A stretch of DNA of 64,000 bases from Sediminibacterium ginsengisoli (GTDB taxonomy: Bacteria > Bacteroidota > Bacteroidia > Chitinophagales > Chitinophagaceae). The notes under the pieces are model-generated. The model saw only the letters and a program-made list of their open reading frames with translations, had not been told where the DNA came from and made no database searches. Location of the stretch: contig CAMCDT010000004.1 of assembly GCA_945873615.1 (NCBI GenBank), forward strand, positions 10,137 through 74,136, given 5' to 3'. Both the position numbers and the translations under genes were made by a program. Below, piece after piece: positions 40,216 through 63,335 of this stretch; position 1 is the first letter of the stretch; each line of letters begins with the position of its first letter.

Positions 40216-40219
40216 TACA

Positions 40220-42139
40220 TTATTTTTTAATTGGAATTTGTTGAATCAGCCACTGCACTAAATCTTTTGCCGCCTGCGCATTTTGATACATAACTGGAAG
40301 CTTTCGTCCATCGGTGTATTCGTTATAAAGCCAAGGATCGCCAGTTGCAAACACAGTGCCCTTTCCTAATTTAGCCGTTGCAAAAACAACCAAATCTCCT
40401 TTTGACAGCAATTTTTGAGCGGGCGCCTTAACCGTTATAGAACAAACTTCTTTTTGATAAATGGTTTGCACATTTTTAAGAATTTTATTTCCGGTAGGCA
40501 CTTCAATTTTACCGCCCACATAATCATTTCCAATTACTCTATTATGCGTATCCTCATTAAAATGAATACCAAATAAATCAGATAATTTATTGATAGCAGT
40601 AAAATCGGCATTGGGTTTGTCATTGTGAAATAAAACAAGCACCCCACCTGCTTTTACCCAATTATAAATCTCCGTCGCATCTTTATCACTCATGTAATTT
40701 GGAGTAGGGGTATCTCCTACATTATCTGCATCTACAATCATGTATATAGATGCATTTTTTAAATTACTTAGTGTTGGCGCTTCAGACAGTGTTTTAGTTT
40801 GCAATCCATTAGCGGTTATTACATTTCCTAAAAATGAAAAACCATTGTTATACATTTCAGGCCATTTGTAATGGTATGCATATTCTACACCTTTGATATC
40901 CTTTTTCTTTTCAGCATTGTAATAGTCGTCTAATAAAAAAACTTGCTTCTTGCCAAGTTTTGGTGCCGTATGCCACTCCATTTCATTAGCAGCTTGTATA
41001 AATGCCCCAACACCTTTTGGATCATTTACAACCACTTTTTCAGACATATAATATGCATAGCTACCATCACGGTAGGGCTTACCGCCAAGTCCACTCACAC
41101 TTACGGTTCCTTCAAGGTTGGCATACCCCTTATCGTCTTTTCTAATAAACTGTTTTACAATACCATCATATCCTTTTGTAGCAAACGCTAAATAACTTGT
41201 TGGCAATAACCCTAAACGTACCGCTTTAGCCGTCGCGCATACAAACATGGCGCTTGCAGAAGCCTCTACATAATTTCCTTTTTCTTTAGGCAGGTTTAAA
41301 ATGTCATACCAAAGGCCCGTTACTGGATCCTGTACTTTTTTGATAGCATCAACTAACCTTTTTAAAATAGCTACAAGTGCTTCCCGTTTTGGGTGTGACT
41401 CAGGAAAGTTTTCCAACACATCTACAAGTGCCATTTGGTACCAACCCATGGCCCTGCCCCAAAAATGAGGAGAGCAACCCGTTACTGGATTGGCCCATTT
41501 TTGTTCTTTACTTTCATCCCACCCATGGTATAACAAACCTGTTTTAGCATCTCTTGCGTGCTGCTCCATCCAAATAAATTGATTAGCAATGTCATCAAAT
41601 GCTTCCGGCTCATGAAACTGTTTGGCATAAGCCGTATAAAATGGCTGACCCATATAAAGTCCGTCAAGCCACATTTGGTTTGGATATATTTTTTTATGCC
41701 AAAACCCACCTTCCTTTGTGCGAGGCTGACCTTTTAACTGATCTCTTAATAAAGATGCTGCTTTATAATATTTGGTTTGGCCTGTTACATTGTATAGCGT
41801 TAGTAAAATTCTGCCACATAAGATATTATCAATGTTATAGTCCTGTGCTTTATAAAATTTAATGTCACCGTTATCGGAAACAAAATAATCCATACTTTTT
41901 TGCATGTATGAAAAATATTCAGGATTGGCCGTTTGTATCCATAAACGCTCGATACCAAGTAGTACCACACCCTGATCGTAGGTCCATTTTGTTGGCTTTG
42001 CAGTGTCTGCACCAGCTTTTTCTTTCCATAAAGTAGCCATTGCCGTTGCCGCTACTTCTGCTGCTAAAGATTTGTTTTGCGCAAATGCAAACTGCATGTT
42101 CACACAAACCACCAATACGATCAAAATTATTTTTTTCAT
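40220..42139 (-). CDS. GH105 unsaturated rhamnogalacturonyl hydrolase with a C-terminal DUF4350-like domain
   Basis: WTYDQG, IDNILCGR, RTKEGGFWHK, MWLDGLYM, LLYHGWDES, FWGRAMGW, EASASAMF; extra ~250 aa GATase-like C-terminal domain. Confidence 0.9.
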   Translation of the reverse strand: MKKIILIVLVVCVNMQFAFAQNKSLAAEVAATAMATLWKEKAGADTAKPTKWTYDQGVVLLGIERLWIQTANPEYFSYMQKSMDYFVSDNGDIKFYKAQDYNIDNILCGRILLTLYNVTGQTKYYKAASLLRDQLKGQPRTKEGGFWHKKIYPNQMWLDGLYMGQPFYTAYAKQFHEPEAFDDIANQFIWMEQHARDAKTGLLYHGWDESKEQKWANPVTGCSPHFWGRAMGWYQMALVDVLENFPESHPKREALVAILKRLVDAIKKVQDPVTGLWYDILNLPKEKGNYVEASASAMFVCATAKAVRLGLLPTSYLAFATKGYDGIVKQFIRKDDKGYANLEGTVSVSGLGGKPYRDGSYAYYMSEKVVVNDPKGVGAFIQAANEMEWHTAPKLGKKQVFLLDDYYNAEKKKDIKGVEYAYHYKWPEMYNNGFSFLGNVITANGLQTKTLSEAPTLSNLKNASIYMIVDADNVGDTPTPNYMSDKDATEIYNWVKAGGVLVLFHNDKPNADFTAINKLSDLFGIHFNEDTHNRVIGNDYVGGKIEVPTGNKILKNVQTIYQKEVCSITVKAPAQKLLSKGDLVVFATAKLGKGTVFATGDPWLYNEYTDGRKLPVMYQNAQAAKDLVQWLIQQIPIKK

Positions 42140-42144
42140 GCTTT

Positions 42145-44487
42145 TTATTGTTGATAGGTGATGCTATTTGATTTTGCGCCAAATAAAAACTCATCTTTTT
42201 TAATAGCTGCACTTGTGTTTGTGGATGTTACTTTAATTGCATTTGAACCGTCACCATTAACACTAAATAGCAAAGGGATATTTGGCTCAATCCCTAAACG
42301 GTTAAAGCTAAGCTTGCTGCTATTTTGGATATACACCAGCGGACTGGCTTGTTCCGTAATAAGTTTAACATTGTTAAACTCAATATTTGAACCCTCCGTA
42401 ATTTCAATTCCCTTACGGGTAGCAAATACCATATCACTTAATACTAAATTGGAAATATTCATTTCAGGAATACCTCTTACAAATACCGCTTTATCGGCAC
42501 CATTGCAATAGACATTGTTAAAATAGAAGTTTCTAAAAATAGGCGTTGCTTCTGTTACCGGCAGTGTTTGAATAACAGGCATGTCCTTTTTTTCGCCCTC
42601 AAGCGTTATAGGATCCTTAGCAGCGTAATACATGTCAAACAAAACAGCTTCACCTACAATATCTCGCATGGTTATGTTGGAAGCATAAATATTTTCTACA
42701 ACACCCCCTCTCCCTCTAGTTGTTTTAAAACGAAGTCCAATATCAGTTCCAATAAATGTACAGTTAGAAACAAAAATATTATTAGCACCACCACTCATTT
42801 CGCTTCCAATCACAAAACCGCCGTGGGCATGATACACTGTTGTATTAATTGCAATAATGTCTTTGGTTGGCATACCTCTTTTGCGTCCTTCTTCATCTCT
42901 ACCAGATTTAATACAGATACCATCATCACCGGTGTCAAAATTACAACCATCAATAAGCGCGTTGGTGCAAGACTCTAGATCTAGGGCGTCTGTGTTTTGT
43001 CCATACCATGGATTTTTAACATTCACTTTTCTGATGGTGATATGCTTACTCATAAGTATGTGCATAGTCCACGCAGGAGAGTTTTCAAAAGTGACGCCTT
43101 CTAATAACACATTAGAACAACCCGTAAAACGGATCATATTGGGTCGTAAAAAATCACGGATCGGCTCAAAATCTTGAAGCGCTGCACCATTGATGAGCTT
43201 TCCAATATTGTTGGTAAGCGAACCTTTTAATGCGCCCGCCGATGGATACCAGTTTGATTTGTCTTCACTTAAAACGCCACCCGTTTTGATCAATCGCTTC
43301 CATTCTGATTCTGTAACCTTTCCTTTTTTTAACGGGCGCCAGGCTTCACCACCGCCATTAAAAATACCTTGTCCTGTAATGGCAATATTAACAGCGTCTG
43401 TTGCCGAAATAGGAGACTGACATCTTGCTGCTTCAACGCCTTCAAAAGAAGCCACTTTTAAAGGATATTGAGTTCTGTCCTTTGTAAATATAACTAGTGC
43501 ACCTCTTGCTGTATTAAGTTCTACATTGTTATGTAGCACAATAGGGCCTGTTAACCAAAGACCGGCAGGAATATATACAATACCGCCACCAGCTTTATTT
43601 GCTGCAACAATAGCGTTATTAATGGCTACTGTATTAAGTGTAATACCATCTTTTACTGCACCAAAATCAACTACGTTAAATGTGTCTTTTTTAAAATGAG
43701 GCTCGTATATTTTTGGAAGCTCAAAAGCATATTTCTCTTTGTGTGCAGAGCGCAGTAAATATTTTTCTATTACGAAATGTTTTTCTAAAATTTCGGCACA
43801 TACGAGTGACGCTATTTGCGACGCACCGTATTCAGAAAAATGGGTATCATCTTTTTTACCAAACGGCATCACTTTAAAATGATTGGAATCAATCCATAAA
43901 AACATTTTTTTTGATCCTTCAACTCCTTCTTTCTCAATTAATTTTTTACTAGACGCGTGAAGGTCAATGAGTGGAACATGCATAGAGTCCGCTAAAAAAC
44001 GAACAACGCCCGGGTAGTTGCCATGCTGGTCAACAAAAACACCTGAGCCATTAAATTTGCGGCGCATTACGGGCGTCATTAAAATTGGATTGCCCCCTTT
44101 TTTCCTAGTATCTGTAATAAACCTAATTAAGTTTTGTTTGTAAAGCGTATTTGCAGGTGCAGATCTAATGGAATCATCGAGTTTTGAATCGTTATGACCG
44201 AACTGAATAAACACATAGTCGCCTTCTTTCATGTATTTCATTACGGTATCCCATCTTCCTTCTTTGATAAAACTTTTAGTACTCCTGCCGTTAACAGCAA
44301 GGTTTTTTATTTCAACAGCACTAGAAATATATTGAGGGAATAATTGTCCCCAACCTCTTTCTGGATTATCGGCAAGTGGTTTATCTGCCATAGTAGAATC
44401 ACCAATCATAAAAAAAACAACCTTTTTTTCAGGTGCCATAAACCCTACTAAAATAATAGCAGCGAATAAGTATACAATTCTTTTCAT
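42145..44487 (-). CDS. Bimodular CE12 (rhamnogalacturonan/pectin acetylesterase, SGNH) / GH28 polygalacturonase
   Basis: SGNH blocks GDST, NGRST, QFGHND, DTHF. GH28 motifs NTDALD, GDDGICIKSG, HGGFVIGSE, GLRFKT. Confidence 0.9.
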   Translation of the reverse strand: MKRIVYLFAAIILVGFMAPEKKVVFFMIGDSTMADKPLADNPERGWGQLFPQYISSAVEIKNLAVNGRSTKSFIKEGRWDTVMKYMKEGDYVFIQFGHNDSKLDDSIRSAPANTLYKQNLIRFITDTRKKGGNPILMTPVMRRKFNGSGVFVDQHGNYPGVVRFLADSMHVPLIDLHASSKKLIEKEGVEGSKKMFLWIDSNHFKVMPFGKKDDTHFSEYGASQIASLVCAEILEKHFVIEKYLLRSAHKEKYAFELPKIYEPHFKKDTFNVVDFGAVKDGITLNTVAINNAIVAANKAGGGIVYIPAGLWLTGPIVLHNNVELNTARGALVIFTKDRTQYPLKVASFEGVEAARCQSPISATDAVNIAITGQGIFNGGGEAWRPLKKGKVTESEWKRLIKTGGVLSEDKSNWYPSAGALKGSLTNNIGKLINGAALQDFEPIRDFLRPNMIRFTGCSNVLLEGVTFENSPAWTMHILMSKHITIRKVNVKNPWYGQNTDALDLESCTNALIDGCNFDTGDDGICIKSGRDEEGRKRGMPTKDIIAINTTVYHAHGGFVIGSEMSGGANNIFVSNCTFIGTDIGLRFKTTRGRGGVVENIYASNITMRDIVGEAVLFDMYYAAKDPITLEGEKKDMPVIQTLPVTEATPIFRNFYFNNVYCNGADKAVFVRGIPEMNISNLVLSDMVFATRKGIEITEGSNIEFNNVKLITEQASPLVYIQNSSKLSFNRLGIEPNIPLLFSVNGDGSNAIKVTSTNTSAAIKKDEFLFGAKSNSITYQQ

Positions 44488-51471: not shown

Positions 51472-53595
51472 TTACAGGGGGAGTATCCTGATATTTCTGA
51501 AACGAACTACGTCTCCATGGCCTAAAAAGCCAATATGACCTGAAGTTCGCTTTAATCCAGGGTGATCATTGTGGTCCATCGTCCCGTTTATTGAAGCCTC
51601 CCTAATATCAGCATCTGTAATCGTTTCGCCATTTAAGACCACTTTTACACGGGTTCCCTTTACCACAACAACTTCCTCATTCCACTCGCCGGTAGGCCTT
51701 AGAAAGCCCCTTCTAGCCGGCACAACGCCATATATAGAGCCGTGGTACTGGTAAGGCTTCAAGTTCTTATAGATGTCCGCCTCATTATCCAGTATTTGTA
51801 GTTCCATACCAACATAAGCGGCATCGCCAGTTAGTGGCGCTCGAATGCCAAGCCCATTATTTGCCCCAGGGGTTAATTGGAACTCAAAACGGTATTCAAA
51901 ATCGGAATACTGCTCTTTGGTATATAAATTTCCGCCGCCTGCACTTTTTGGATTCACCATAATGGACCCGTCTTGCAAAAGATAGCCGGCTTTATTGCCT
52001 ACCCAGTTGTCTAAATGTGTGCCGTCAAATAATTGCTTAAAACCTTGCTGCTTTTCCAAATCCGAAAGTTTGGTTGGCTCGTTACTAGGAAGCTCTCTAA
52101 TATAAATATTACGGTAAGCTACATAAGTACCATGCGCCTGTAATTCAATTTGCTCTTTTACAAAAATGGGAAGCGTGCGGTCCCAGTAATTTTCTAACGC
52201 CACTTTATCTGTTACAAGCACACCATTTAAATAAACCGTTACCTGCGCTCCGCGCATGATAATGTGAAAAGTATTCCAACTACCAATTTTATTATCTGCT
52301 ACCACTTTTGGATGGCGCTCATTTTTTTGATTATTGTAGAGTCCACCAGAACCCACCTGCGCGCCTACTTCACGTCTACTGGTATCCCAAATTTGTACTT
52401 GTGGTGTGCCGCGCAAATAAATACCAGCATCTCCTTTTTCGGTGATTTTCCAATCCACAAAAAGTTCAAAATCGCCAAACTGTTTTTGTGTACATAAATT
52501 ATCGCCATGCCCTGTAAAAACAAGAAGGCCATCTTTTACCACCCAGTCGGACTTTATTTTTTCATCGGCTTTTTTTTGCGCATCAATAAGTTGTTGCGCA
52601 GTCATTTTTGAGCGCGCAATAGGATTGGCAACAAGGCCTTTCCATCCGGTTAAATCTGTTCCGTTAAATAAATTTTCGAAACCATAATCATAAGGCATGG
52701 CCTTAATATGATAAGCCAACTTACCAGCTACAATAGCACTATCCTCCCCTCTTAATAAAGCAAGTGCTTTTTGTACAACAGGTCTTATCATCGGACCTTT
52801 AAAATCCGGATTGGCAAGTGCTAGCTTAGCAACTACAAGCGCTGCATCAGATTGTAGCGCTGGCGTTTCTAAATATTTAGCAGCAAACATGAGCGCACCT
52901 AGTTTGTTTACTTTGCCAGCTTCTATAATAATTTCTTTTTGAGCCGTTGGGCTTTTTGCCGTTTCCATTTGATCTTGCAAATCCAACAACCTCTGCGCGG
53001 GATGAACTTCTTTAGCGGGCGTTAATGCAACTGCCTGTAATGCGGGCAACACAAGCTTTGCGTGTTTGATTGCTGCTTCAATGGCAGGCTTTGCAGCAGG
53101 CGTTGCTTTTGCTAAAGCAGCATCTAGTGCAGCTAATGATTTTTTTGCATGAAGCGTAGCAAGTGACATAGCCGCTGCATCAGAAAGTGCAGGAACCTCA
53201 ATATAACTTGCAATTGTTTTAACGGCTTTATCAGACCCTAAATAACCAAGTCTTTCAATTAAATATGAGCGTACTAAAATATTTTTTTCTTGTACATCTT
53301 TTAATTGCTCAAGCGCACCAATTAAAACATTAGCTGCTTTATTTGCCAACGCTTTGTCAGTAGCGGCTGCATGCAAATATGCATCTAGCTCATACATCGC
53401 TTTTACGTGAGGTGCATTAGTGCCAGCTTCTGTACTATTAAATACATTAAAAAACGATGTCCAGTCTGCTTTTTGCCAAGCCTGCATTTTTGTAACAGTG
53501 GCCGCTACAGAAGCAGTATTGCCTTGCGCAAATGCACTGCTTGTAATAACTAAAAAAAAGGCTGCTATAATAAAAGCTGAAAATATTTTTTTCAT
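51472..53595 (-). CDS. Helical (HEAT-like) N-terminus plus two DUF1080 (3-keto-disaccharide hydrolase family) domains
   Basis: Signal peptide, Ala-rich helical region, then two repeats LFNGTDLTGW...FGDFEL...WNTFHI...ELQAHG...YRNIYI and LFDGTHLDNW...YSDFEY...EWNEE...GFLGHG...FRNIRI. Confidence 0.85.
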   Translation of the reverse strand: MKKIFSAFIIAAFFLVITSSAFAQGNTASVAATVTKMQAWQKADWTSFFNVFNSTEAGTNAPHVKAMYELDAYLHAAATDKALANKAANVLIGALEQLKDVQEKNILVRSYLIERLGYLGSDKAVKTIASYIEVPALSDAAAMSLATLHAKKSLAALDAALAKATPAAKPAIEAAIKHAKLVLPALQAVALTPAKEVHPAQRLLDLQDQMETAKSPTAQKEIIIEAGKVNKLGALMFAAKYLETPALQSDAALVVAKLALANPDFKGPMIRPVVQKALALLRGEDSAIVAGKLAYHIKAMPYDYGFENLFNGTDLTGWKGLVANPIARSKMTAQQLIDAQKKADEKIKSDWVVKDGLLVFTGHGDNLCTQKQFGDFELFVDWKITEKGDAGIYLRGTPQVQIWDTSRREVGAQVGSGGLYNNQKNERHPKVVADNKIGSWNTFHIIMRGAQVTVYLNGVLVTDKVALENYWDRTLPIFVKEQIELQAHGTYVAYRNIYIRELPSNEPTKLSDLEKQQGFKQLFDGTHLDNWVGNKAGYLLQDGSIMVNPKSAGGGNLYTKEQYSDFEYRFEFQLTPGANNGLGIRAPLTGDAAYVGMELQILDNEADIYKNLKPYQYHGSIYGVVPARRGFLRPTGEWNEEVVVVKGTRVKVVLNGETITDADIREASINGTMDHNDHPGLKRTSGHIGFLGHGDVVRFRNIRILPL

Positions 53596-53624
53596 GGTGG
53601 TTGATTTGTCAATAATTTAAAATA

Positions 53625-54887
53625 CTATATGCCCCATGGTGCACGCATAGGCGGGTTAATCATTTTATTGGCTTCGTCATCACCAATAAATTCTTGTGTT
53701 TCAGGATTAAAATTTAATGTGCGTCCTAACTGCAACGCAATTTTACCCAGGTTAATTATGGTGCAAGACCTATGCCCATTGGACTCATTCAGCGCAAATG
53801 GTGTTCTGTATTTTACGGATTCTAAAAAGTCAGTTACTTGTGGAACAGGGTCTGGTAGTAACGCTAATTTCTCTTTTAAATTAGGAATGGTTGATTTAAA
53901 TCCAGCAAACAACTTACCCTCTGGACCTTCAATGTATGCCACCGATTCATCTTTGGCTTCACCATCTAAAATTATTTTACAACCATCGGCATAGGTGTAA
54001 ATAATTTTTCGGAATGTGCCGCAAGCATCTGGGTGTTGTTGATCTGCATCTACCTCTACTTTTACTGGGCTGGTATGGTCTTTACCTAAGAAATATTGAA
54101 TAGGATCTAAATAGTGCTGACCCATATCTCCAAGACCACCCCCATCATAATCCCAATAACCTCTAAATGTTCCATGCACGCGGTGTGCGTTGTAAGGCTT
54201 ATAGGGTGCAGGACCTAGCCATCTGTCATAATCTAATGTTTGCGGAACAGGCTGCGCTTCAAGTCCTGTTTTTCCTACCCAATAAAATTTCCAGTCAAAG
54301 CCTGTATGCTTGCTAACCGTTACTGTTAATGGCCAACCGAGCATGCCAGATTCTACTAGTTTTTTTATGGGCTTCACGGTTGTTTTCATACCATAAAACT
54401 CATCTTGAAACCTGAACCATGTATTTAAACGAAACATTCTACCATGTTGCTTTACTGCTTCAACCACACGCTTACCTTCGCCAATGGTTCTGGTCATTGG
54501 CTTTTCACACCAGATATCTTTGCCGGCTTTAGCCGCTTCAATTGACATAATCCCATGCCAGTGAGGAGGCGTTGCAATATGCACGATATCAACTTCAGGC
54601 ATTGCAATAAGTTCATGATAATCTAGCATTGTTTTTACACCACTACCTACCATTTTAGCGGCTGCTGCTAAATGCGTTTGGTCTACATCACATAACGCAA
54701 CCACCCTGGTACCTGCAAGTCCTATATGACCTCTACCCATACCGCCAAGGCCTATAATGCCTTTGGTTAATTGATCACTAGGGGCTATAAACCCTCTACC
54801 TAAAACTTGTCTTGGAATAATTGTTACCCCTGCAGCTATGGCAGCGGTACTGCGTAAAAACCTACGTCTTGAATTGGATTGTGACAT
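53625..54887 (-). CDS. Tat-exported Gfo/Idh/MocA family oxidoreductase
   Basis: SRRRFL twin-arginine signal, GIIGLGGMG, VALCDVD, ATPPHWH, WCEKPM, GLGDMGQHYLD. Start set at 54887. Confidence 0.92.
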   Translation of the reverse strand: MSQSNSRRRFLRSTAAIAAGVTIIPRQVLGRGFIAPSDQLTKGIIGLGGMGRGHIGLAGTRVVALCDVDQTHLAAAAKMVGSGVKTMLDYHELIAMPEVDIVHIATPPHWHGIMSIEAAKAGKDIWCEKPMTRTIGEGKRVVEAVKQHGRMFRLNTWFRFQDEFYGMKTTVKPIKKLVESGMLGWPLTVTVSKHTGFDWKFYWVGKTGLEAQPVPQTLDYDRWLGPAPYKPYNAHRVHGTFRGYWDYDGGGLGDMGQHYLDPIQYFLGKDHTSPVKVEVDADQQHPDACGTFRKIIYTYADGCKIILDGEAKDESVAYIEGPEGKLFAGFKSTIPNLKEKLALLPDPVPQVTDFLESVKYRTPFALNESNGHRSCTIINLGKIALQLGRTLNFNPETQEFIGDDEANKMINPPMRAPWGI

Positions 54888-55013
54888 GGCAAGTATCTTA
54901 ATGTACTTAAAGATATAGAAGTCAGCCAATACTATAACAGCAGTTATTAGCTAATTTTACCCATAAATACACTTGTATTGGCAAGTCTTGTTATACTTTA
55001 CCCAATGATTATG

Positions 55014-56018: not shown

Positions 56019-56852
56019 ATGAAAATTATTCACCAAGTACATCCCGAAGATTTTGTAAAATATACAACCGAGCAAATTAGAGCTAAATTTTTACTAGACA
56101 ATTTAGTAGAGCCGGGCGCTATCAATTTTGTGTATACGCATTATGATAGAATGGTGGTGGGCGCCGCAACCCCTACTACTGCCGCCATTCAGCTTGGCAC
56201 CTACGACGCTTTAAAGTCAGAAAACTTTTTGGATAGAAGAGAAATAGGTATCGTAAACATTGGCGCCACAGGAAGCGTAACCGTAGAAGGTCAAATTTAC
56301 ACCCTAGATAAAATTGATTGCTTGTATATTGGTATGGGTAATAAAGAAGTTACTTTTCATGCGAGCACCGACCCGAGCAACCCTTCTAAATTTATTTTAT
56401 TCTCTTGCCCAGCGCACGCGAACCATCCTACACAGCTTATGCAAAGTAAAGATGCAACGCCTGCCGAAATGGGAAGCGCAGAAACAGCGAATCACCGTAC
56501 CATTAATAAATATATTCATGCAGATGGCTTAAAAAGTTGTCAACTTGTACTTGGTGTAACCAATTTTAAACCAGGTAGCATTTGGAATACCATGCCAGCG
56601 CACCTGCACGACCGCCGTATGGAAGCATACTTCTATTTTGATTTACCTGAAACACAACGTGTCATTCATTTCATGGGTGAGCCACACGAAACAAGACATC
56701 TATTCTTAAACAATGAACAAGGTATTGTGTCTCCATCATGGAGTATTCATAGTGGTGTAGCAACGGCTTCTTACTCCTTTATTTGGGCAATGGCTGGTGA
56801 AAATATGTCGTTTGCTGATATGGATTTTGTAAACATTCAGTTATTAAAATAA
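56019..56852 (+). CDS. kduI: 5-dehydro-4-deoxy-D-glucuronate isomerase
   Basis: YTHYDRM, FLDRREIGIVNIG, SCPAH, NHRTINKYI, SCQLVLG, WNTMPAHLHDRRMEAYFYF, SPSWSIHSG, WAMAGEN. Confidence 0.97.
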   Translation: MKIIHQVHPEDFVKYTTEQIRAKFLLDNLVEPGAINFVYTHYDRMVVGAATPTTAAIQLGTYDALKSENFLDRREIGIVNIGATGSVTVEGQIYTLDKIDCLYIGMGNKEVTFHASTDPSNPSKFILFSCPAHANHPTQLMQSKDATPAEMGSAETANHRTINKYIHADGLKSCQLVLGVTNFKPGSIWNTMPAHLHDRRMEAYFYFDLPETQRVIHFMGEPHETRHLFLNNEQGIVSPSWSIHSGVATASYSFIWAMAGENMSFADMDFVNIQLLK

Positions 56853-56857
56853 TTCCT

Positions 56858-57619
56858 ATGCTAAATTTTAGAGTAGATAATAAAGTTGCTTTAGTAACGG
56901 GTTGCAGTAAAGGTATTGGCATGGCCATCGCCATCGAACTTGCTAATAGCGGCGCCGATATTATTGGTGTGAGTGGCTCTATGCCAGCATCCGGAAGCGA
57001 TGTAGAAAAAGCAGTACTTGCTGCAGGTAAAAAGTATTATGCATACCAAGCCGATTTTTCAAATAGAGATTCGATTTATGCATTTTTAGATGCGGTAATC
57101 AAAAATCATCCAAAAATTGATATCCTCATTAACAATGCGGGAAGTATTCAAAGAAGTCCTGCCGCCGAGCATTCTGACGAATTTTGGGATAATATCATTG
57201 ACATCAATTTAAATGCTCAATTTATTATCACCCGAGAAATTGGAAAACAAATGATTGCCAATGGCGCTGGAAAAATAGTGTTTACGGCCTCTCTTTTAAG
57301 CTTCCAAGGCGGTATCAACGTACCTGGCTACGCTGCTAGTAAAGGAGCTGTTGCCTCCTTAATTAAGGCATTTGCCAACGAATGGGCTAGTAAAGGCATT
57401 ACCGTAAATGGTGTTGCCCCTGGATATATATCCACAGACAATACGGCACAGTTAAGGGCCGATCCGGACAGAAATGCCTCTATTTTGGCCAGAATACCAG
57501 CAAATAGATGGGGGACTCCTCAGGATTTAACCGGAGCTTTCGTTTTTTTATCCTCTCCTGCTTCAGACTATGTCAACGGCACCATCTTAACCGTAGATGG
57601 CGGCTGGATGGGTAGATAA
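56858..57619 (+). CDS. kduD: 2-dehydro-3-deoxy-D-gluconate 5-dehydrogenase (SDR)
   Basis: ALVTGCSKGIG, IDILINNAG, ASLLSFQGGINVPGYAASKG, NEWASKGITVNGVAPGYI, RIPANRWG, VDGGWMGR; adjacent to kduI. Confidence 0.93.
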   Translation: MLNFRVDNKVALVTGCSKGIGMAIAIELANSGADIIGVSGSMPASGSDVEKAVLAAGKKYYAYQADFSNRDSIYAFLDAVIKNHPKIDILINNAGSIQRSPAAEHSDEFWDNIIDINLNAQFIITREIGKQMIANGAGKIVFTASLLSFQGGINVPGYAASKGAVASLIKAFANEWASKGITVNGVAPGYISTDNTAQLRADPDRNASILARIPANRWGTPQDLTGAFVFLSSPASDYVNGTILTVDGGWMGR

Positions 57620-57634
57620 CTATATTTCAATACT

Positions 57635-57686
57635 AAGGCGTCATTCGTAAGTAATTATTAAATTTAGGCTTACGAATGATGCCTTA
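57635..57686. repeat. Long inverted repeat between kduD and the cytochrome/DUF1553 gene, reaching the start codon
   Basis: AAGGCGTCATTCGTAAG (57635-57651) pairs with CTTACGAATGATGCCTT (57669-57685) with one G-T wobble; 17-nt AT-rich loop; ATG at 57686. Confidence 0.9.
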
Positions 57687-60409
57687 TGTTTTTAAAGCCT
57701 AGCAAAAAACTTTTTTACAGTTCTGCAGTACTCATTGTGCTTGCCATTACCGCTGTTATAATTTATCCTTCCGATCCTATCGATTATAACACAGAAGTAA
57801 AACCCATTTTAAATAAAAAGTGTATCACCTGTCATGGTGGTGTAAAACAAGAGGGCGGGTTTAGTTTGCTTTTTGAAGAAGAAGCATTTGCGCCTACCAA
57901 ATCTGGTAAGCCTGCCATTATAAAATTTAAACCAGAAGAAAGTGAACTGATCAGAAGACTGCATTTAACAGATCCTGAAGAACGCATGCCGTATAAGCAC
58001 GATCCGTTAACCAAAGAAGAAATTAAAATTTTAACAACTTGGGTTAAAGAAGGTGCTAAATGGGGATCACACTGGGCGTATCAAAAAGTAAATGAACCTA
58101 AAGTTCCTAGCATTAATGACGATTGGGTAAAAAATAATATTGATAAATACATTGTAGAAAAATTAGAAGCAGAAAAATTAAGTCCTTCCAAAGAAGCAGA
58201 CAAAGCAACACTGTTAAGACGTGTTAGTTTAGATATCACAGGCCTTCCTGCAAATAAAAAAATTGCGGCAAAATATTTAAACGACCAATCAGACAAAGCC
58301 TACGAAAATTTAGTCAATGATTTAATGGCCACTCCCGCCTATGGCGAAAAATGGGCCGCACTTTGGCTAGACCTTGCCAGATACGCAGACACCAAAGGCT
58401 TTGAAGCAGACCGCGGAAGAAACATTTACAAATACAGAGACTGGCTTATAAGTGCATTTAACACAGACAAACCTTACAACGATTTTTTAACCGAGCAAAT
58501 TGCAGGCGACCTATTACCCAACCCTTCTGATGCACAGTACATCGCTACTGCGTTTCATAGGAACACCATGAACAATGATGAAGGCGGTACCGACAATGAA
58601 GAGTTTAGAACCGCTGCTGTACTTGACCGCGTTAATACTACATGGAGCGCCGTTATGGGCACTAGTTTTAATTGCGTACAGTGTCATAGCCATCCGTATG
58701 ATCCTTTCAAGCATGACGAGTATTATAAGTTCATGGCGTTTTTTAACAATACTAGAGACGAAGATTCTCCTTTTGAAAACCCTGTACTCCGTCAATACCA
58801 AGGTGCCGACAATGTAAAATTTGAATCGGTAAAAAAATGGTTGCAACAAAATGCGGCACCAACATCTGCTAATTATTGGATTACTTTTTTACGCACGCTT
58901 CAACCAAGTATCAATGCATTTCAGTGCGATAAATTTGTTAACGGCGCCAACGGTTGGTATGCAACACTGCGCAACAACGGAACTTGTAATTTAAAAAATG
59001 TGGTACTCACTGGAAAATCGGAACTTTTGTTTAAATACGCTTCAAGGGTAGACAAAGGCGTGTGGCGCATTTATTTAGATAGTTTAACTGGACCACTTGT
59101 AAAAGAAGTGCCTGTTAAAAACACAGGCGGTGGTTTTGTACATACCACCACTAGCCTTCCAGACATTAAGGGCACGCACACTTTATATTTCAAGTACTAT
59201 TCTCCTAAAATAAAAAACAGTACCGACGATGGTATTTTATTTGAGTGGTTTTCATTTGGCAATCCATTTCCTGCCAAAGAAAAACCTGGTTACGATAGCG
59301 CTTACAAATATTTTAATGACTTAATAATGGCGGGTGCAGAAACAACACCCATTATGATGGACGCCAACGAAGACCTTTTTAGACCCACGCATGTTTTTGA
59401 AAGAGGCAGCTGGCTTTCTAAGGGAAAACTTGTTGCACCTGATGTACCAGCTGTGCTACCTGGCCTTCCAAAAAATGCACCCAAAAATAGACTCGGCCTT
59501 GCAATGTGGTTAACAGATAAAAACAATCCACTTGTTTCACGTACACTTGTTAATAGACTTTGGGAACAGTTATTTGGAACCGGCATAGTAGAAACCCTCG
59601 AAGATTTAGGCACGCAGGGATTATCGCCAACACACCAAACACTGCTAGATTATTTGGCATGGCAACACATGCACACGCACAATTGGAGTATTAAAAAAAC
59701 ACTGAAAGAAATTTTACTTTCTGCAACCTACAGGCAGCAATCGATGTTTACCAAAGAACTCCTTAAAAAAGATCCGTACAATAAATTATATGCAAGAGGC
59801 CCAAGGGTAAGACTTTCGGCAGAGCAAATTAGAGATCAAACACTTGCGGTAAGTACTTTGTTAAGTCCAAAAATGTATGGCAAAAGTGTAATGCCGTATC
59901 AGCCAGATGGTATTTGGCGTTCACCCTATAATGGCGATGTATGGAAATTATCTGAAGGTGAAGATCAGTATAGACGTTCACTCTATACATACTTTAAAAG
60001 AACAGCTCCTTACCCATCGATGCTCACATTTGATGGCGGTGCTAGAGAAGTATGTGTAATTAGACGCATTAGAACCAATACGCCACTTCAAGCGCTTACC
60101 TCATTAAACGATTCGTCTTATATTATTATGGCCCGCTCTTTTGCAAAAAGTATGGACAAAGTAAATGGCTCTATTGAGGCAAAAATAAATACGGGTTACG
60201 AAGAGATGATGTACAAACCTATTGCTCCTGCTAAATTGAATGTACTTACTAATTTATACCAGTCGAGTTTGTCAAAATATCAAAACAATAAAAAAGCAGC
60301 AACAGTATTAGTGAGCGATAGCACACTTGCATCACCCACCAATAGAGCAGCCCTTGTTGTAGTAGCCAACGCCATGCTTAATTTAGACGAATGGCTCAAT
60401 AAAAATTAA
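57686..60409 (+). CDS. Planctomycete-type cytochrome c / DUF1549 / CBM6-like insert / DUF1553 (PSD1) protein
   Basis: N-terminal hydrophobic anchor; CITCH at 57821-57835; IDKYI, LLRRVSLDITGLP, YGEKWAALWLDLARYADT, CVQCHSHPYDP at 58673; NRLGLAMWL, NRLWEQLFG, PTHQTLLDYLA, RLSAEQIRD, RTNTPLQAL. Confidence 0.88.
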   Translation: MFLKPSKKLFYSSAVLIVLAITAVIIYPSDPIDYNTEVKPILNKKCITCHGGVKQEGGFSLLFEEEAFAPTKSGKPAIIKFKPEESELIRRLHLTDPEERMPYKHDPLTKEEIKILTTWVKEGAKWGSHWAYQKVNEPKVPSINDDWVKNNIDKYIVEKLEAEKLSPSKEADKATLLRRVSLDITGLPANKKIAAKYLNDQSDKAYENLVNDLMATPAYGEKWAALWLDLARYADTKGFEADRGRNIYKYRDWLISAFNTDKPYNDFLTEQIAGDLLPNPSDAQYIATAFHRNTMNNDEGGTDNEEFRTAAVLDRVNTTWSAVMGTSFNCVQCHSHPYDPFKHDEYYKFMAFFNNTRDEDSPFENPVLRQYQGADNVKFESVKKWLQQNAAPTSANYWITFLRTLQPSINAFQCDKFVNGANGWYATLRNNGTCNLKNVVLTGKSELLFKYASRVDKGVWRIYLDSLTGPLVKEVPVKNTGGGFVHTTTSLPDIKGTHTLYFKYYSPKIKNSTDDGILFEWFSFGNPFPAKEKPGYDSAYKYFNDLIMAGAETTPIMMDANEDLFRPTHVFERGSWLSKGKLVAPDVPAVLPGLPKNAPKNRLGLAMWLTDKNNPLVSRTLVNRLWEQLFGTGIVETLEDLGTQGLSPTHQTLLDYLAWQHMHTHNWSIKKTLKEILLSATYRQQSMFTKELLKKDPYNKLYARGPRVRLSAEQIRDQTLAVSTLLSPKMYGKSVMPYQPDGIWRSPYNGDVWKLSEGEDQYRRSLYTYFKRTAPYPSMLTFDGGAREVCVIRRIRTNTPLQALTSLNDSSYIIMARSFAKSMDKVNGSIEAKINTGYEEMMYKPIAPAKLNVLTNLYQSSLSKYQNNKKAATVLVSDSTLASPTNRAALVVVANAMLNLDEWLNKN

Positions 60410-60414
60410 TTCCC

Positions 60415-61911
60415 ATGACGCAAAAAGAATTACATAACCAGCGCCTAGTAAGAGAAGCCCAAAAAGTGGTGATGCAACAGCATACACGCAGGCATTTTAT
60501 TAAAGAAAGCGCCATGGGTCTAGGCGCCCTTGCACTTGGCAATCTATTAGGTGGTTGCAGCACCGGAAGTAATAATGTATTTGATGCTACCAATCCATTA
60601 GCGCCAAAAGCGGCTCCGTTTTTAGGAAAAGCCAAGTCCGTTATTTATTTACACATGGCAGGTGCGCCTTCTCAATTAGAAATGTTTAGCTACAAGCCTG
60701 AGCTTGCAAAATTAGACGGTCAAGATTGTCCGCCTTCATTACTCAATGGTAAAAAGTTTGCATTTATTAGAGGCGTTCCTAAAATGCTAGGCCCACAAGC
60801 AAGTTTTAATAGATATGGCCAGAGTGGTACTTGGGTTTCAGAAAACCTTCCACACTTATCTACTGTTATTGATGACATGGCCGTGCTTCAGGCCGTTACT
60901 ACCGATCAGTTCAACCACGCGCCTGCGCAATTACTCATGCATACAGGAACGCCTCGTTTAGGCAGGCCTAGTATGGGTTCTTGGGTAACCTATGGACTTG
61001 GTACCGAAAATAAAAATCTTCCAGGATTTGTGGTACTTACTTCGGGCGGTAACAATCCGGATGCTGGAAAAAGTGTTTGGGGAAGTGGATTTTTACCAAG
61101 TGTGTATCAAGGTGTGCAGTGCCGCAGCGAAGGCGATCCTGTTTTATTTATTAAAGATCCTGCGGGCATGGACCGCGATATTAGAAAAGCAAGTATCGAC
61201 GCTATTAATAAAGTCAATGAAGAATCTTATACCGAGTATCAAGATCCAGAAACCTTGTCTCGTATTTCTCAATATGAACTTGCCTACAAAATGCAAATTT
61301 CTGTACCGGGTGTTATGGATATTAGCACCGAGCCGGAATATATTCATGAAATGTATGGCACCAAACCAGGCGAATCATGTTTTGCCAACAACGTTTTACT
61401 CGCGCGCAAGCTGGTAGAAAAAGGTGTTCGCTTTGTGCAATTATTTGATTGGGGTTGGGATACACATGGCGACTCTGCGGGCAACGCCGTAGACATTGGA
61501 TTAAAAAATAAATGTCGAAAAATTGATAGACCTATTACCGCGCTTTTACAAGATTTAAAACAAAGAGGTTTACTGGATGAAACACTGGTTGTGTGGGGTT
61601 CTGAATTTGGCAGAACGCCAATGCAAGAAAATAGAGATGGTAAAACCATGCCATTTAAAGGTCGTGATCATCATGGCGAAGCGTTTTCGATGTGGATGGC
61701 TGGCGGTGGCATTAAAGGTGGAACTACCTATGGAGAAACAGATGAAATTGGCTACAATATTGTAAGCGGTAAAGTAGAAACATTTGATGTGCAGGCTACT
61801 ATTTTAAATCAATTAGGTTTTGACCACGAAAAATTCACCTACGAATCACAGGGTCGTAATTTTAGACTTACAGATTTAAGTGGTAAAGTTATTCATGATA
61901 TTATAGCTTAA
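60415..61911 (+). CDS. DUF1501 family protein with a twin-arginine-like signal
   Basis: TRRHFIKES; AKSVIYLHMAGAPSQLE, NHAPAQ, PSMGSWVTYGLG, GFLPSVYQG, ARKLVEKGVRFVQL, GWDTHG, SEFGRTP, GRDHH, FRLTD. Confidence 0.92.
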   Translation: MTQKELHNQRLVREAQKVVMQQHTRRHFIKESAMGLGALALGNLLGGCSTGSNNVFDATNPLAPKAAPFLGKAKSVIYLHMAGAPSQLEMFSYKPELAKLDGQDCPPSLLNGKKFAFIRGVPKMLGPQASFNRYGQSGTWVSENLPHLSTVIDDMAVLQAVTTDQFNHAPAQLLMHTGTPRLGRPSMGSWVTYGLGTENKNLPGFVVLTSGGNNPDAGKSVWGSGFLPSVYQGVQCRSEGDPVLFIKDPAGMDRDIRKASIDAINKVNEESYTEYQDPETLSRISQYELAYKMQISVPGVMDISTEPEYIHEMYGTKPGESCFANNVLLARKLVEKGVRFVQLFDWGWDTHGDSAGNAVDIGLKNKCRKIDRPITALLQDLKQRGLLDETLVVWGSEFGRTPMQENRDGKTMPFKGRDHHGEAFSMWMAGGGIKGGTTYGETDEIGYNIVSGKVETFDVQATILNQLGFDHEKFTYESQGRNFRLTDLSGKVIHDIIA

Positions 61912-61922
61912 AAAAGATACAA

Positions 61923-63335
61923 ATGATTAGTGCTGGTATTGGAAGATTACACCCTGTTTTTGTTCACTTGCCTATTGGCATTTTACTCTTTGCTGCCTTT
62001 TTATTTTTTGCATCAAAAAAACAAAGGTTTGCAAATATGTCTTTGGCGGTAGCGCCAGCACTGGCTATTGGTTCGTTTTTTTCGATCCTATCCTGCATTA
62101 CCGGTTATTTACTTTCTATTTCAGATGCGTATAACGAGGATATTATTTTTAAACACCAGTGGCTGGGTATTGCAACGGCCGTTACAAGTGTTGTATGTTA
62201 TTTCGTTTATCAAAAAAAACAAGGACTGTTTGGCATATTCATTACGCTTTTAACTACACTTATTATGGTTACCGGACATTACGGTGGTAGCCTAACGCAT
62301 GGAGCAGATTATTTAACGGCTTCCTTTAATAAAAGTACAAGTGATGCTAAAAAAGTAATAGCCAATATAGATGAAGCAGTTGTATACACAGATATTATTG
62401 AGCCCATCCTCGCAACAAAATGTTATAGTTGCCATGGCGAAAGCAAACAAAAAGGAAAATTAAGACTTGATCTTCCCAATTATATTTTACAAGGTGGCGA
62501 AGAAGGAAAAGTATTAACCCCCTATCAGCCTGGTAGTAGTGAAATCATAAACCGCTTATTACTGCCTACATCTAACGAAGAACATATGCCACCCAAAGAA
62601 AAACCACAGCTTACAAAAGATGAGGTTGCTTTACTACACTGGTGGATAGAATCCGGCGCTAATTTTACGGCAGCTGTAAAAAACACAAAACAAACAGCCG
62701 CAATTAAAGGACTCTTGGCATCGTTTTCAAATGGTGCAGGTGGTGAAAACGATGGCGCAGATGCCTCTTCAGGAGCAAGCATCCTCCCAACTAAAAACGC
62801 AAGCTCAATATCTGCAGATCTATTAACGCAGTTAAACAAAGAAGGCATTGTAGTAGTGCCCGTTGTAAATGGATCTAATTATGTACGCGCCAATTTAATT
62901 GGTGTCGAAAATCTAAGCGTGCAAACCTTTCAACTATTATCTAAAATATCAGATCAGCTATTACAATTAAACGCATCCTTTACAGCTGTTAAAGACGAAC
63001 ATTTATTGGCCTTATCTAACTGCAAACAGCTTAAACAACTTGAATTAAACGGCACTGCAATAACCAATAAAGGACTTGCATCACTTACTGCATTAGAAAA
63101 TTTAGAAAGTTTAAGCATCACGCAAACAAAAGTTACCGCTGATGGGATTGGCAATGTAAGCGCGCTAAAAAAATTAAAAAAAGTATACCTCTATGGTACT
63201 GGTTTTACAAATGCTGCTATTGCAGGGTTAAAACAAAAAATGCCAGGGTTACTAATAGATACGGGAGGTTATAAATTACCGATTTTAGAAACAGACACTA
63301 CAGAAGCTAAAGCACCAGAGGTAAAAACCAATTAA
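61923..63335 (+). CDS. Membrane DUF2231-like domain + cytochrome c + leucine-rich repeats
   Basis: GRLHPVFVHLPIG, HQWLG, GHYGGSLTHG within transmembrane helices; IEPILATKCYSCHG (heme motif 62421-62435) with axial-ligand-like HMPP; LRR units such as LKQLELNGTAITNKGL and LESLSITQTKVTADGI. Confidence 0.85.
   Translation: MISAGIGRLHPVFVHLPIGILLFAAFLFFASKKQRFANMSLAVAPALAIGSFFSILSCITGYLLSISDAYNEDIIFKHQWLGIATAVTSVVCYFVYQKKQGLFGIFITLLTTLIMVTGHYGGSLTHGADYLTASFNKSTSDAKKVIANIDEAVVYTDIIEPILATKCYSCHGESKQKGKLRLDLPNYILQGGEEGKVLTPYQPGSSEIINRLLLPTSNEEHMPPKEKPQLTKDEVALLHWWIESGANFTAAVKNTKQTAAIKGLLASFSNGAGGENDGADASSGASILPTKNASSISADLLTQLNKEGIVVVPVVNGSNYVRANLIGVENLSVQTFQLLSKISDQLLQLNASFTAVKDEHLLALSNCKQLKQLELNGTAITNKGLASLTALENLESLSITQTKVTADGIGNVSALKKLKKVYLYGTGFTNAAIAGLKQKMPGLLIDTGGYKLPILETDTTEAKAPEVKTN

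Follow-up and report, generated by a model that had tools for sequence, protein, structure and literature searches.

A CBM6-derived domain without the canonical sugar-binding residues in a Bacteroidota subfamily of two-haem cytochromes

Introduction

This article concerns a beta-sandwich related to carbohydrate-binding module family 6 (CBM6) that is embedded in a periplasmic two-haem cytochrome, the gene for which lies in a 64,000-nucleotide stretch of Sediminibacterium ginsengisoli DNA (NCBI GenBank assembly GCA_945873615.1, contig CAMCDT010000004.1, positions 10,137 to 74,136 of the forward strand; hereafter the window). The sandwich occupies amino acids (aa) 409-526 of the cytochrome and is homologous to CBM6, to which it is nearer than to CBM35, and the residues through which canonical CBM6 modules hold their ligands are gone throughout the Bacteroidota subfamily that carries it. 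On balance, I consider it probable that the domain is CBM6-derived, non-canonical and not specific for pectin. The initial annotation, made from the DNA alone, had read the same segment as a CBM6/35-like module and as intrinsic evidence, independent of gene context, that the cytochrome targets a glycan, with uronate-binding CBM35 relatives that would fit the locus. The argument turns on two features:

57686..60409, + strand: cytochrome gene, an open reading frame (ORF) of 907 aa with the order PSCyt1 / PSCyt2 (DUF1549) / CBM6-like / PSD1 (DUF1553), two-haem, periplasmic
58910..59263, + strand: CBM6-like beta-sandwich, aa 409-526, eight strands (Pfam, hhalign, AlphaFold2, Foldseek)

In Planctomycetes, Verrucomicrobia and many Bacteroidota, proteins with PSCyt2 and PSD1 domains and the DUF1501 proteins that accompany them rank with the most abundant gene families that still lack an explanation, and any substrate clue intrinsic to one of them is valuable. 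The CBM6-like insert is real, yet it is no simple sugar anchor, and recognizing this guards against annotating the whole system as pectin-related.

A CBM6 fold between two domains of unknown function

The peptide that had been quoted for 58880-59260 is exactly the frame 1 translation of that segment, inside the ORF at 57686-60409; it does lie between DUF1549 (aa 151-357) and DUF1553 (aa 601-857) according to Pfam, and its limits agree with those of the modelled sandwich (58910-59263) to about 10 codons. When the isolated segment is compared with the Pfam profile CBM_6 (PF03422), for which the curated gathering cut-off is 28.9 bits, it scores 28.7 bits (E 1.8e-6) over profile positions 44-109 of 125, and the whole ORF gives a sub-threshold match at aa 442-505. 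In the subfamily, 40 of 41 proteins match the same profile at E<=0.01, with a best value of 1.9e-8, and a precomputed PF03422 match is present in 29 among the 120 homologues listed. The homology to CBM6 is clear, and formal membership of the family is borderline.

A word-indexed search with aa 358-600 alone returned 8 fragments, and the whole protein and an exhaustive search were used instead. The exhaustive search compared aa 399-531 by phmmer with 1.84 billion representative proteins and produced 104 matches at E<=1e-3. Those that share the architecture of the cytochrome align at about aa 405-545 of proteins 900-930 aa long; the others include proteins that carry between three and nine genuine CBM6 repeats, reached with E-values down to 7e-18, several of them joined to GH30, GH5 or beta-helix/GH141-like modules. 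From these matches 113 canonical CBM6 repeats were taken, and hhalign aligned the 41-member subfamily profile with them over 122 columns at a probability of 99.1 % (E 1.5e-17).

The predicted structure is a CBM6-type jelly roll, as had been anticipated. AlphaFold2, run on aa 396-532 with the domain alignment, yields eight strands with a predicted local distance difference test score (pLDDT) of 92.7 and a predicted template-modelling score (pTM) of 0.85, and in Foldseek comparison with the PDB the top 15 matches to this model are all CBM6 structures or the CBM6 domains of GH43 enzymes, with template-modelling (TM) scores of 0.62-0.76 (the leading entries being 8hcj, 3c7e, 2v4v, 1uxx, 1gmm, 1o8s, 1uy2, 1nae, 5fui and 1w9s). 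The full-length model likewise finds CBM6-type structures only, 2v4v with a TMt of 0.79 and a root-mean-square deviation of 2.3 A. One could still argue for a chance or compositional resemblance, with no real CBM6-related domain behind it, by pointing to the Pfam score just below threshold (28.7 against 28.9) and to a single-sequence PDB search in which the best E-value for the domain was 0.13; against this stand the profile-profile probability of 99.1 %, the E of 7e-18 to genuine CBM6 repeats in a library of 1.8 billion proteins, and a confidently predicted structure that has CBM6 entries as its best matches, at Foldseek probability 1.0. Since phmmer, Foldseek and hhalign all contradict it, chance similarity was rejected and I regard it as barely conceivable.

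The other half of the initial assignment fared less well. CBM35 modules that bind uronates (2w47 and 2w1w, with delta-4,5-anhydrogalacturonate or glucuronate as ligands) belong to the same fold superfamily and are found by Foldseek at probability 1.0, but 2w1w reaches a TM score of 0.60 and 2w47, the delta-4,5-GalA complex, 0.58 at rank 43, compared with 0.73-0.76 for CBM6. The Pfam profile CBM_35 (PF16990) matches 0/41 subfamily members and CBM_35_2 (PF18099) 1/41 (E 0.0057), and neither matches the segment of the window at E<=1. The CBM6 part of the label (40/41, TM 0.73-0.76) thus stands, and membership of CBM35 (0/41 and 1/41, TM 0.58-0.60) was rejected on the Pfam profiles and the lower TM scores.

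Loss of the canonical ligand residues

Canonical CBM6 modules bind sugars in cleft A through Tyr34, Trp92 and Asn120 (numbering of CtCBM6) and Glu20 (of CmCBM6-2), with Tyr34 and Trp92 as the two stacking aromatics (PMC10284105). These positions were followed through a merged profile alignment and through 19 close and 98 more distant full-length homologues (117 in total). For cleft B, the aromatic on the concave face is taken here to be the Trp of the G-D-W motif, as in CmCBM6-2. Five columns were compared between the canonical repeats and the subfamily:

Glu20: 72 % in canonical repeats; Leu in the subfamily, Phe in the window
Tyr of the E-A-E-x-Y motif: 68 % in canonical repeats; Cys in the subfamily
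Tyr34 column: variable in canonical repeats; Gly/Thr in the subfamily
Trp/Tyr of G-D-W (cleft B): 87 % in canonical repeats (W 53 % / Y 34 %); Thr 78 % / Ser 21 % in the subfamily
Asn120: 77 % in canonical repeats; Leu, Met or Gln in the subfamily, with Asn in 0/117

Trp92 needs a closer look, because the T-G-G-W-x-x-W loop that carries it is two residues shorter in the subfamily than in canonical CBM6 and retains a lone aromatic, residue 484. A profile alignment anchored on the flanks pairs this residue not with Trp92 but with the second of the two aromatics, which is Tyr95 in 1gmm; pairwise HMMER alignments disagree, placing it on the first Trp in 2v4v and on the second aromatic in 3c7e, 1w9s and 1gmm. 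It was correct to say that a Trp of the TGGW region had become Phe, in that residue 484 is Trp in 98/98 distant homologues and Phe in the clade of the window, but the aromatic concerned appears to be the second of the motif. Going by these alignments, no more than one of the four cleft A residues has been kept, and probably not even one, and both canonical sugar sites of CBM6, cleft A and cleft B, are dismantled across the subfamily as far as sequence can tell.

What the same loops hold is a conserved set specific to the subfamily, comprising the pair Cys414/Cys434 together with Asp415, Arg429 and Arg435. Arg429 is invariant in the 117 homologues and present in at least 90 % of a wider 66-sequence alignment, and Arg435 is kept in 97/98 distant homologues and replaced by Asn in the clade of the window. 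At the columns of the structural calcium site, compared by alignment only, the C-terminal position is still acidic (D 50 % / E 42 %), Asn stands in place of the first Glu in 92 % and Leu in place of the second. Within the window's own clade the ratio of nonsynonymous to synonymous substitution rates (dN/dS) is 0.07-0.12 for the domain against 0.03-0.06 for the other domains; a decaying remnant was considered and rejected, because the domain is under purifying selection. Since the canonical ligand residues are gone, the fold alone is no proof of glycan binding, and the claim that the insert is intrinsic evidence of a glycan target loses its footing in the 117 homologues, with their lost ligand residues and shortened Trp92 loop. 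Carbohydrate binding by the CBM6-like domain is unproven, and targeting of pectin is unsupported.

A domain built into the cytochrome

The remaining parts of the cytochrome are arranged around the sandwich as follows:

57821..57835, + strand: first c-type haem motif, C46-I-T-C49-H50, in PSCyt1 (alignment of 66 homologues)
58136..58756, + strand: PSCyt2 (DUF1549), aa 151-357 (Pfam E 7.6e-79)
58673-58687, + strand: second haem motif, C330-V-Q-C333-H334, inside PSCyt2 (alignment of 66 homologues)
58802..58897, + strand: two helices, aa 373-404, preceding the beta-sandwich (DSSP of the full-length model, pLDDT 84-97)
59486..60256, + strand: PSD1 (DUF1553), aa 601-857 (Pfam E 1.1e-85)

PSCyt1 itself is matched by Pfam at aa 46-102 (E 6e-13), both CxxCH motifs (C46/C49/H50 and C330/C333/H334) are invariant in the 66 aligned homologues, and a hydrophobic helix at aa 7-26 acts as the signal or anchor of the protein. 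The full-length AlphaFold2 model, built from 66 sequences, has a pLDDT of 84.4 and a pTM of 0.85 and shows the two helices (aa 373-404) first, then the sandwich (409-526), and after it a helix followed by a small sheet, with pLDDT 84-97 throughout aa 361-570 and no low-confidence linker. The helical stretch holds the near-invariant motif F-L-K/R-T-x-Q-P-x-I-N in the homologue alignments, and the flanking motifs F-L-K-T-W-Q-P-x-I-N and F-P-G-K-G are better conserved than the sandwich itself, which is 45-55 % identical between homologues compared with 62-66 % for the rest of the protein. In the model, the CBM6-like domain thus appears to be rigidly packed into the cytochrome and not tethered to it.

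An arrangement of this kind invites another proposal, in which the domain is purely an architectural spacer or protein interface without any small-molecule ligand, and either docks DUF1501 or the cytochrome-leucine-rich-repeat (LRR) protein described below or sets the geometry between the haem domains and PSD1. The lost canonical sites, the high pTM without flexible linkers, the lower identity of the domain (45-55 % against 62-66 % elsewhere) and the presence among the top Foldseek matches of integral C-terminal CBM6-like domains of GH43 enzymes (8hcj, 3c7e) would all agree with it, whereas the conserved Asp415, Arg429 and Arg435 in the old cleft A loops look more like a site than a spacer, and the range of different lectin-type inserts that paralogues in the wider family carry suggests specificity modules. 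I regard this proposal as rather unlikely.

Outside the sandwich there is little with which to compare the protein. NCBIfam assigned no family, and relatives bear the NCBI name 'DUF1553 domain-containing protein' and nothing more; a PDB sequence search with the whole cytochrome returned CBM6 matches alone and none for the other parts, and Foldseek against the PDB with the full-length model found no match for DUF1549 or DUF1553 at E<1e-3 (57686-58756 and 59486-60256). DUF1549 and DUF1553 are very abundant domains, confidently modelled here (pTM 0.85), that are represented by no solved structure. The lowest confidence of the model falls within PSD1 at aa 770-808 (window 59993-60109, pLDDT 31-47), a segment rich in invariant residues (R772, P777, D783, R787, C790, R794, T797, T799, P800, L801 and Q802), and the combination marks a candidate loop for binding a partner or cofactor, which might become ordered only within a complex.

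A conserved operon in Bacteroidota

More than 100 full-length homologues at 61-66 % identity all have the domain at the same position, and a scan of one genome per species found it encoded in 272 genomes. The nearest relatives belong to Sediminibacterium (87 % identical within the domain and 91 % over the whole protein), and further hosts include other Chitinophagaceae, Daejeonella, Pedobacter, Sphingobacterium, Cyclobacteriaceae and Ohtaekwangia; the domain stands at the same position in Chitinophagaceae, Sphingobacteriaceae and Cyclobacteriaceae, and likewise in the more divergent proteins of Haliscomenobacter, Emticicia and Flectobacillus. Gene context was surveyed in 80 retrieved Bacteroidota loci, each with at most 10 kb of flank per side, which were searched with the proteins of the window. 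The partner genes are:

60415..61911, + strand: DUF1501 protein of 498 aa with the twin-arginine signal TRRHFIK (Pfam E 2.4e-147)
61923..63335, + strand: membrane protein with DUF2231, a PSCyt1 cytochrome c domain and leucine-rich repeats, third gene of the operon (Pfam)
L029:3592-4527, as an example from another locus: xylose-isomerase-like TIM barrel (AP_endonuc_2) of 311 aa with a twin-arginine signal, between DUF1501 and the cytochrome-LRR gene in 53/80 loci (among L010-L080)

In the window the DUF1501 gene begins 6 bp past the cytochrome gene, and it adjoins the cytochrome in 66/80 loci, the remainder being mostly truncated contigs; the cytochrome-LRR gene is found downstream in 58/80. 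Essentially every locus long enough to show them has the cytochrome, DUF1501 and cytochrome-LRR genes together, and when the ORFs of the 80 loci were clustered, the only families common to more than 26 loci were those of the operon. The cytochrome-LRR protein may be the membrane partner for electron transfer. In the window this protein, encoded at 61923-63335, has a low-complexity Gly/Ala/Ser linker before the C-terminal leucine-rich repeats and is 37-53 % identical across families. DUF1501 is a member of the alkaline-phosphatase/sulfatase superfamily, in agreement with a weak Pfam similarity to Phosphodiest and with a PDB search that gave only choline sulfatase (E 0.35).

The TIM-barrel gene, as a periplasmic protein of sugar isomerase/dehydratase type, is the best contextual hint of sugar handling; a homologue search of the window found none, and the gene is also absent from the loci of the Sediminibacterium clade. 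Sphingobacteriaceae have neighbours of their own (Ppx, Maf, an ABC exporter, HAD and DnaJ), which are lineage-specific.

Proposed role

The arrangement that I favour is one in which a sandwich of CBM6 ancestry has become fixed within a single Bacteroidota subfamily of periplasmic two-haem cytochromes. The cytochrome would be exported, because c-type haem attachment requires export, and kept at the inner membrane through the helix at its N-terminus, where it would work with the neighbouring DUF1501 protein exported by the twin-arginine translocation (TAT) pathway and, in most lineages, with a TAT-exported TIM-barrel protein and the membrane-anchored cytochrome c/LRR protein as further partners. 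With Cys414/Cys434, Asp415, Arg429 and Arg435 (Asn in the clade of the window) now in the former cleft A loops, the domain would no longer serve as a tethered anchor for polysaccharides and may instead offer a non-canonical recognition or docking surface inside an enzyme complex, one that could bind a small imported periplasmic substrate or a partner protein. I infer such a recognition or docking role from the loss of both canonical sugar sites and from the apparently rigid integration of the domain, and action on small molecules in the periplasm belongs to the same conditional picture.

Several points weigh against this proposal and should be kept in view. Atypical CBM6 modules without the canonical residues exist in active xylanases (PMC10284105), so the loss of those residues leaves sugar binding possible. 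Rigid packing is read from model confidence scores (pLDDT and pTM) only. The wider PSCyt2/PSD1 family carries many lectin-like inserts, among them Laminin_G_3, F5_F8_type_C, PA14 and NPCBM (PMC5615132), and this diversity looks like a set of interchangeable modules for ligand specificity, which favours a ligand over a purely structural role. Some Chitinophagaceae operons lie near GH95, GH29, ROK and SIS genes, neighbours that leave a link to sugars possible, and the cytochrome/DUF1501 system as a whole is without any characterised member. Weighing all of this, I would rate a carbohydrate-type ligand of some sort for the domain as a serious but somewhat doubtful prospect.

Relation to known systems

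The idea of connecting CBMs with sugar-directed cytochromes is already in print. Kamneva (2012; PMC3542564) described the module of DUF1501 with PSCyt1/PSCyt2/PSD1 proteins and its added domains of carbohydrate-binding type, and proposed that the cytochromes pass electrons to sugars or proteins; He (2017; PMC5615132) gave CBM_6 (pfam03422) as one of the CBMs that occur in PSCyt genes, drew the same inference on sugars, and reasoned that PSCyt proteins are not extracellular, so that their substrates would be mono- or oligomers. The cytochrome of the window is an ordinary member of this known, uncharacterised family, and it has the same domain set and the same TAT-signal DUF1501 neighbour as the modules of Planctomycetes and Verrucomicrobia (PMC3542564; PMC5615132, group II). 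Unlike those modules, the Bacteroidota subfamily has a constant CBM6-like domain, together with a cytochrome-LRR gene and usually a TIM-barrel gene, and the description of the region between DUF1549 and DUF1553 as a variable insertion site is, according to the literature, apt for the wider family of Planctomycetes, Verrucomicrobia and relatives (PMC3542564, PMC5615132) but not within this subfamily. What is new here is the degenerate binding site, which is not noted in either of those papers, together with the observations that the insert is constant in the Bacteroidota subfamily, that the four-gene operon is conserved and that no pectin context is conserved with it.

Compared with CBM6 proper (CtCBM6 of C. 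thermocellum Xyn11A, 1gmm/1uxx; CcCBM6, 2v4v; CsCBM6-3, 1nae; BhCBM6, 1w9s), the domain shares the jelly roll of about 120 residues (TM 0.73-0.79) and the motifs R-x-x-S...G-x-I-x-[IVL]-x-LDS-x-x-G-x-L, G-x-H-x-L-Y-[FL] and [DEN]-W-F-x-F. It differs in being without Glu20, Tyr34, Trp92, Asn120 and the cleft-B Trp, in a Trp92 loop shorter by 2 aa, in its subfamily-specific Cys pair and two Arg, and in being embedded in a periplasmic cytochrome with no flexible linker, where CBM6 modules are appended to glycosidases. The C-terminal CBM6-like domains of GH43 enzymes (3c7e, 8hcj) are among its best structural matches, and in these enzymes that domain packs against the catalytic domain. A second parallel is the atypical CBM6 of HhXyn5A, which has the CBM6 fold with cleft A aromatics and Asn unconserved, as in the domain of the window (PMC10284105). 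The hosts of both, though, are glycoside hydrolases with known substrates, whereas the host here is a redox protein of unassigned function. For biochemistry and structure determination the Bacteroidota subfamily is a good target, with a single copy per locus, a constant four-gene operon, confident models and cultured hosts in Daejeonella, Ferruginibacter, Limnovirga, Emticicia and Haliscomenobacter.

The pectin genes of the window

Directly upstream of the cytochrome lie two genes of uronate metabolism type and, between the second of them and the cytochrome, an RNA hairpin:

56019-56852, + strand: kduI-like gene (Pfam)
56858-57619, + strand: kduD-like short-chain dehydrogenase/reductase (SDR) gene, directly upstream of the cytochrome (Pfam)
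57629..57690, + strand: terminator-like hairpin between the kduD stop and the cytochrome ATG, its main stem 19 bp long (RNA fold -28.5 kcal/mol, z -6.2)

The cytochrome gene starts 66 bp past kduD on the same strand, and the pectin polysaccharide utilization locus (PUL) of the window has its nearest genes, SusC/D, within about 6 kb, with GH28, GH88/105-like, PL10-CE8 and uxaABC genes 13-24 kb upstream. Here the initial annotation saw a locus that fits a uronate-binding module, and the corresponding reading is that the domain is a working CBM6/35-type module for pectin ligands (unsaturated galacturonate or glucuronate) and the cytochrome and DUF1501 genes part of a pectin locus. The CBM6 fold and homology speak for it, as do the position of the gene 66 bp behind kduI-kduD on the same strand and within about 6 kb of the nearest PUL genes, the retention of kduID adjacency throughout the Sediminibacterium clade, and changes confined to that clade (R435N/R450K/W484F and loss of the TIM barrel) that could mark a change of substrate. 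Against it, there is no Pfam CBM_35 match and CBM35 structures fit worse than CBM6, the canonical cleft residues are all absent, 71/80 related loci are without a pectin gene within about 9 kb per side, a terminator-like hairpin and transcript ends lie between kduD and the cytochrome, and polymeric pectin would be out of reach of a periplasmic protein. I consider this reading very unlikely.

The survey of loci is instructive on the point of context, in that kduI, kduD, SusC, the GFO oxidoreductase and the 3-keto-disaccharide hydrolase are found only in the nine loci of the Sediminibacterium clade (L001-L009) and in 0/71 others. Within that clade the kduI-kduD adjacency is kept in every locus long enough to show it. 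The kduI-kduD pair is context outside the conserved cytochrome module, and the pectin genes beside the cytochrome are a lineage-specific accident of gene order; with pectin genes adjoining only nine loci of 80, and with the hairpin and transcript ends at the junction, the supposed fit to the locus is left unsupported.

At the junction itself, the hairpin is followed by UGUUUUU, which overlaps the first cytochrome codons, and its 3' arm covers the start codon. The hairpin could act as a terminator, or else as an attenuator that blocks the initiation of translation as well. In public assembled metatranscriptome contigs from strains about 94 % identical, the kduI-kduD contigs of two runs from closely related strains end at 57702 and 57703, with a drop in depth at the junction (about 19 to 9-12 in the first, 20-48 to 0-11 in the second), and the contig of one run of ambiguous type crosses from kduD into the cytochrome. 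The cytochrome operon is transcribed, and the contig data, suggestive but weak as evidence, indicate that it is probably no simple continuation of kduID. A scan for sigma-70 promoters and simple terminators, which does not cover Bacteroidota promoters, was uninformative, with counts below shuffled expectation, and it missed the long hairpin.

The Sediminibacterium clade nevertheless has its own signature, with R435N, R450K and W484F (window 58988-59137) found there alone and Arg/Arg/Trp in 96-98 of the 98 others, and these same loci (L001-L009) are the ones without the TIM-barrel gene and with kduI-kduD upstream. The substitutions, the loss of the TIM barrel and the kduID adjacency may mark a change of substrate. 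A more specific version would have the domain as the substrate-specificity module of a periplasmic redox system, made up of the two-haem cytochrome and DUF1501 and acting on imported sugars, its site rebuilt in the cleft A loops from the Cys pair, Asp415, Arg429 and Arg435 and retuned in this clade (R435N, W484F, R450K), along with TIM-barrel loss and kduID adjacency, in a switch to a uronate-derived substrate; I hold this to be improbable.

As to the PUL, the - strand at 51472-54929, between SusC and the kduI side, encodes a GFO/IDH/MocA oxidoreductase and a protein of 707 aa in which the 3-keto-disaccharide hydrolase domain (DUF1080) occurs twice, a hint that the PUL may include an oxidative step by way of 3-keto sugars. 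Further upstream, also on the - strand, a Pec_lyase of PL10 type is fused to an N-terminal pectinesterase fragment (38152-40215) and a GH28 to an N-terminal GDSL esterase domain (42145-44487), with a 639-aa GH88-family protein encoded between the two fusions (within 38152-44487, - strand).

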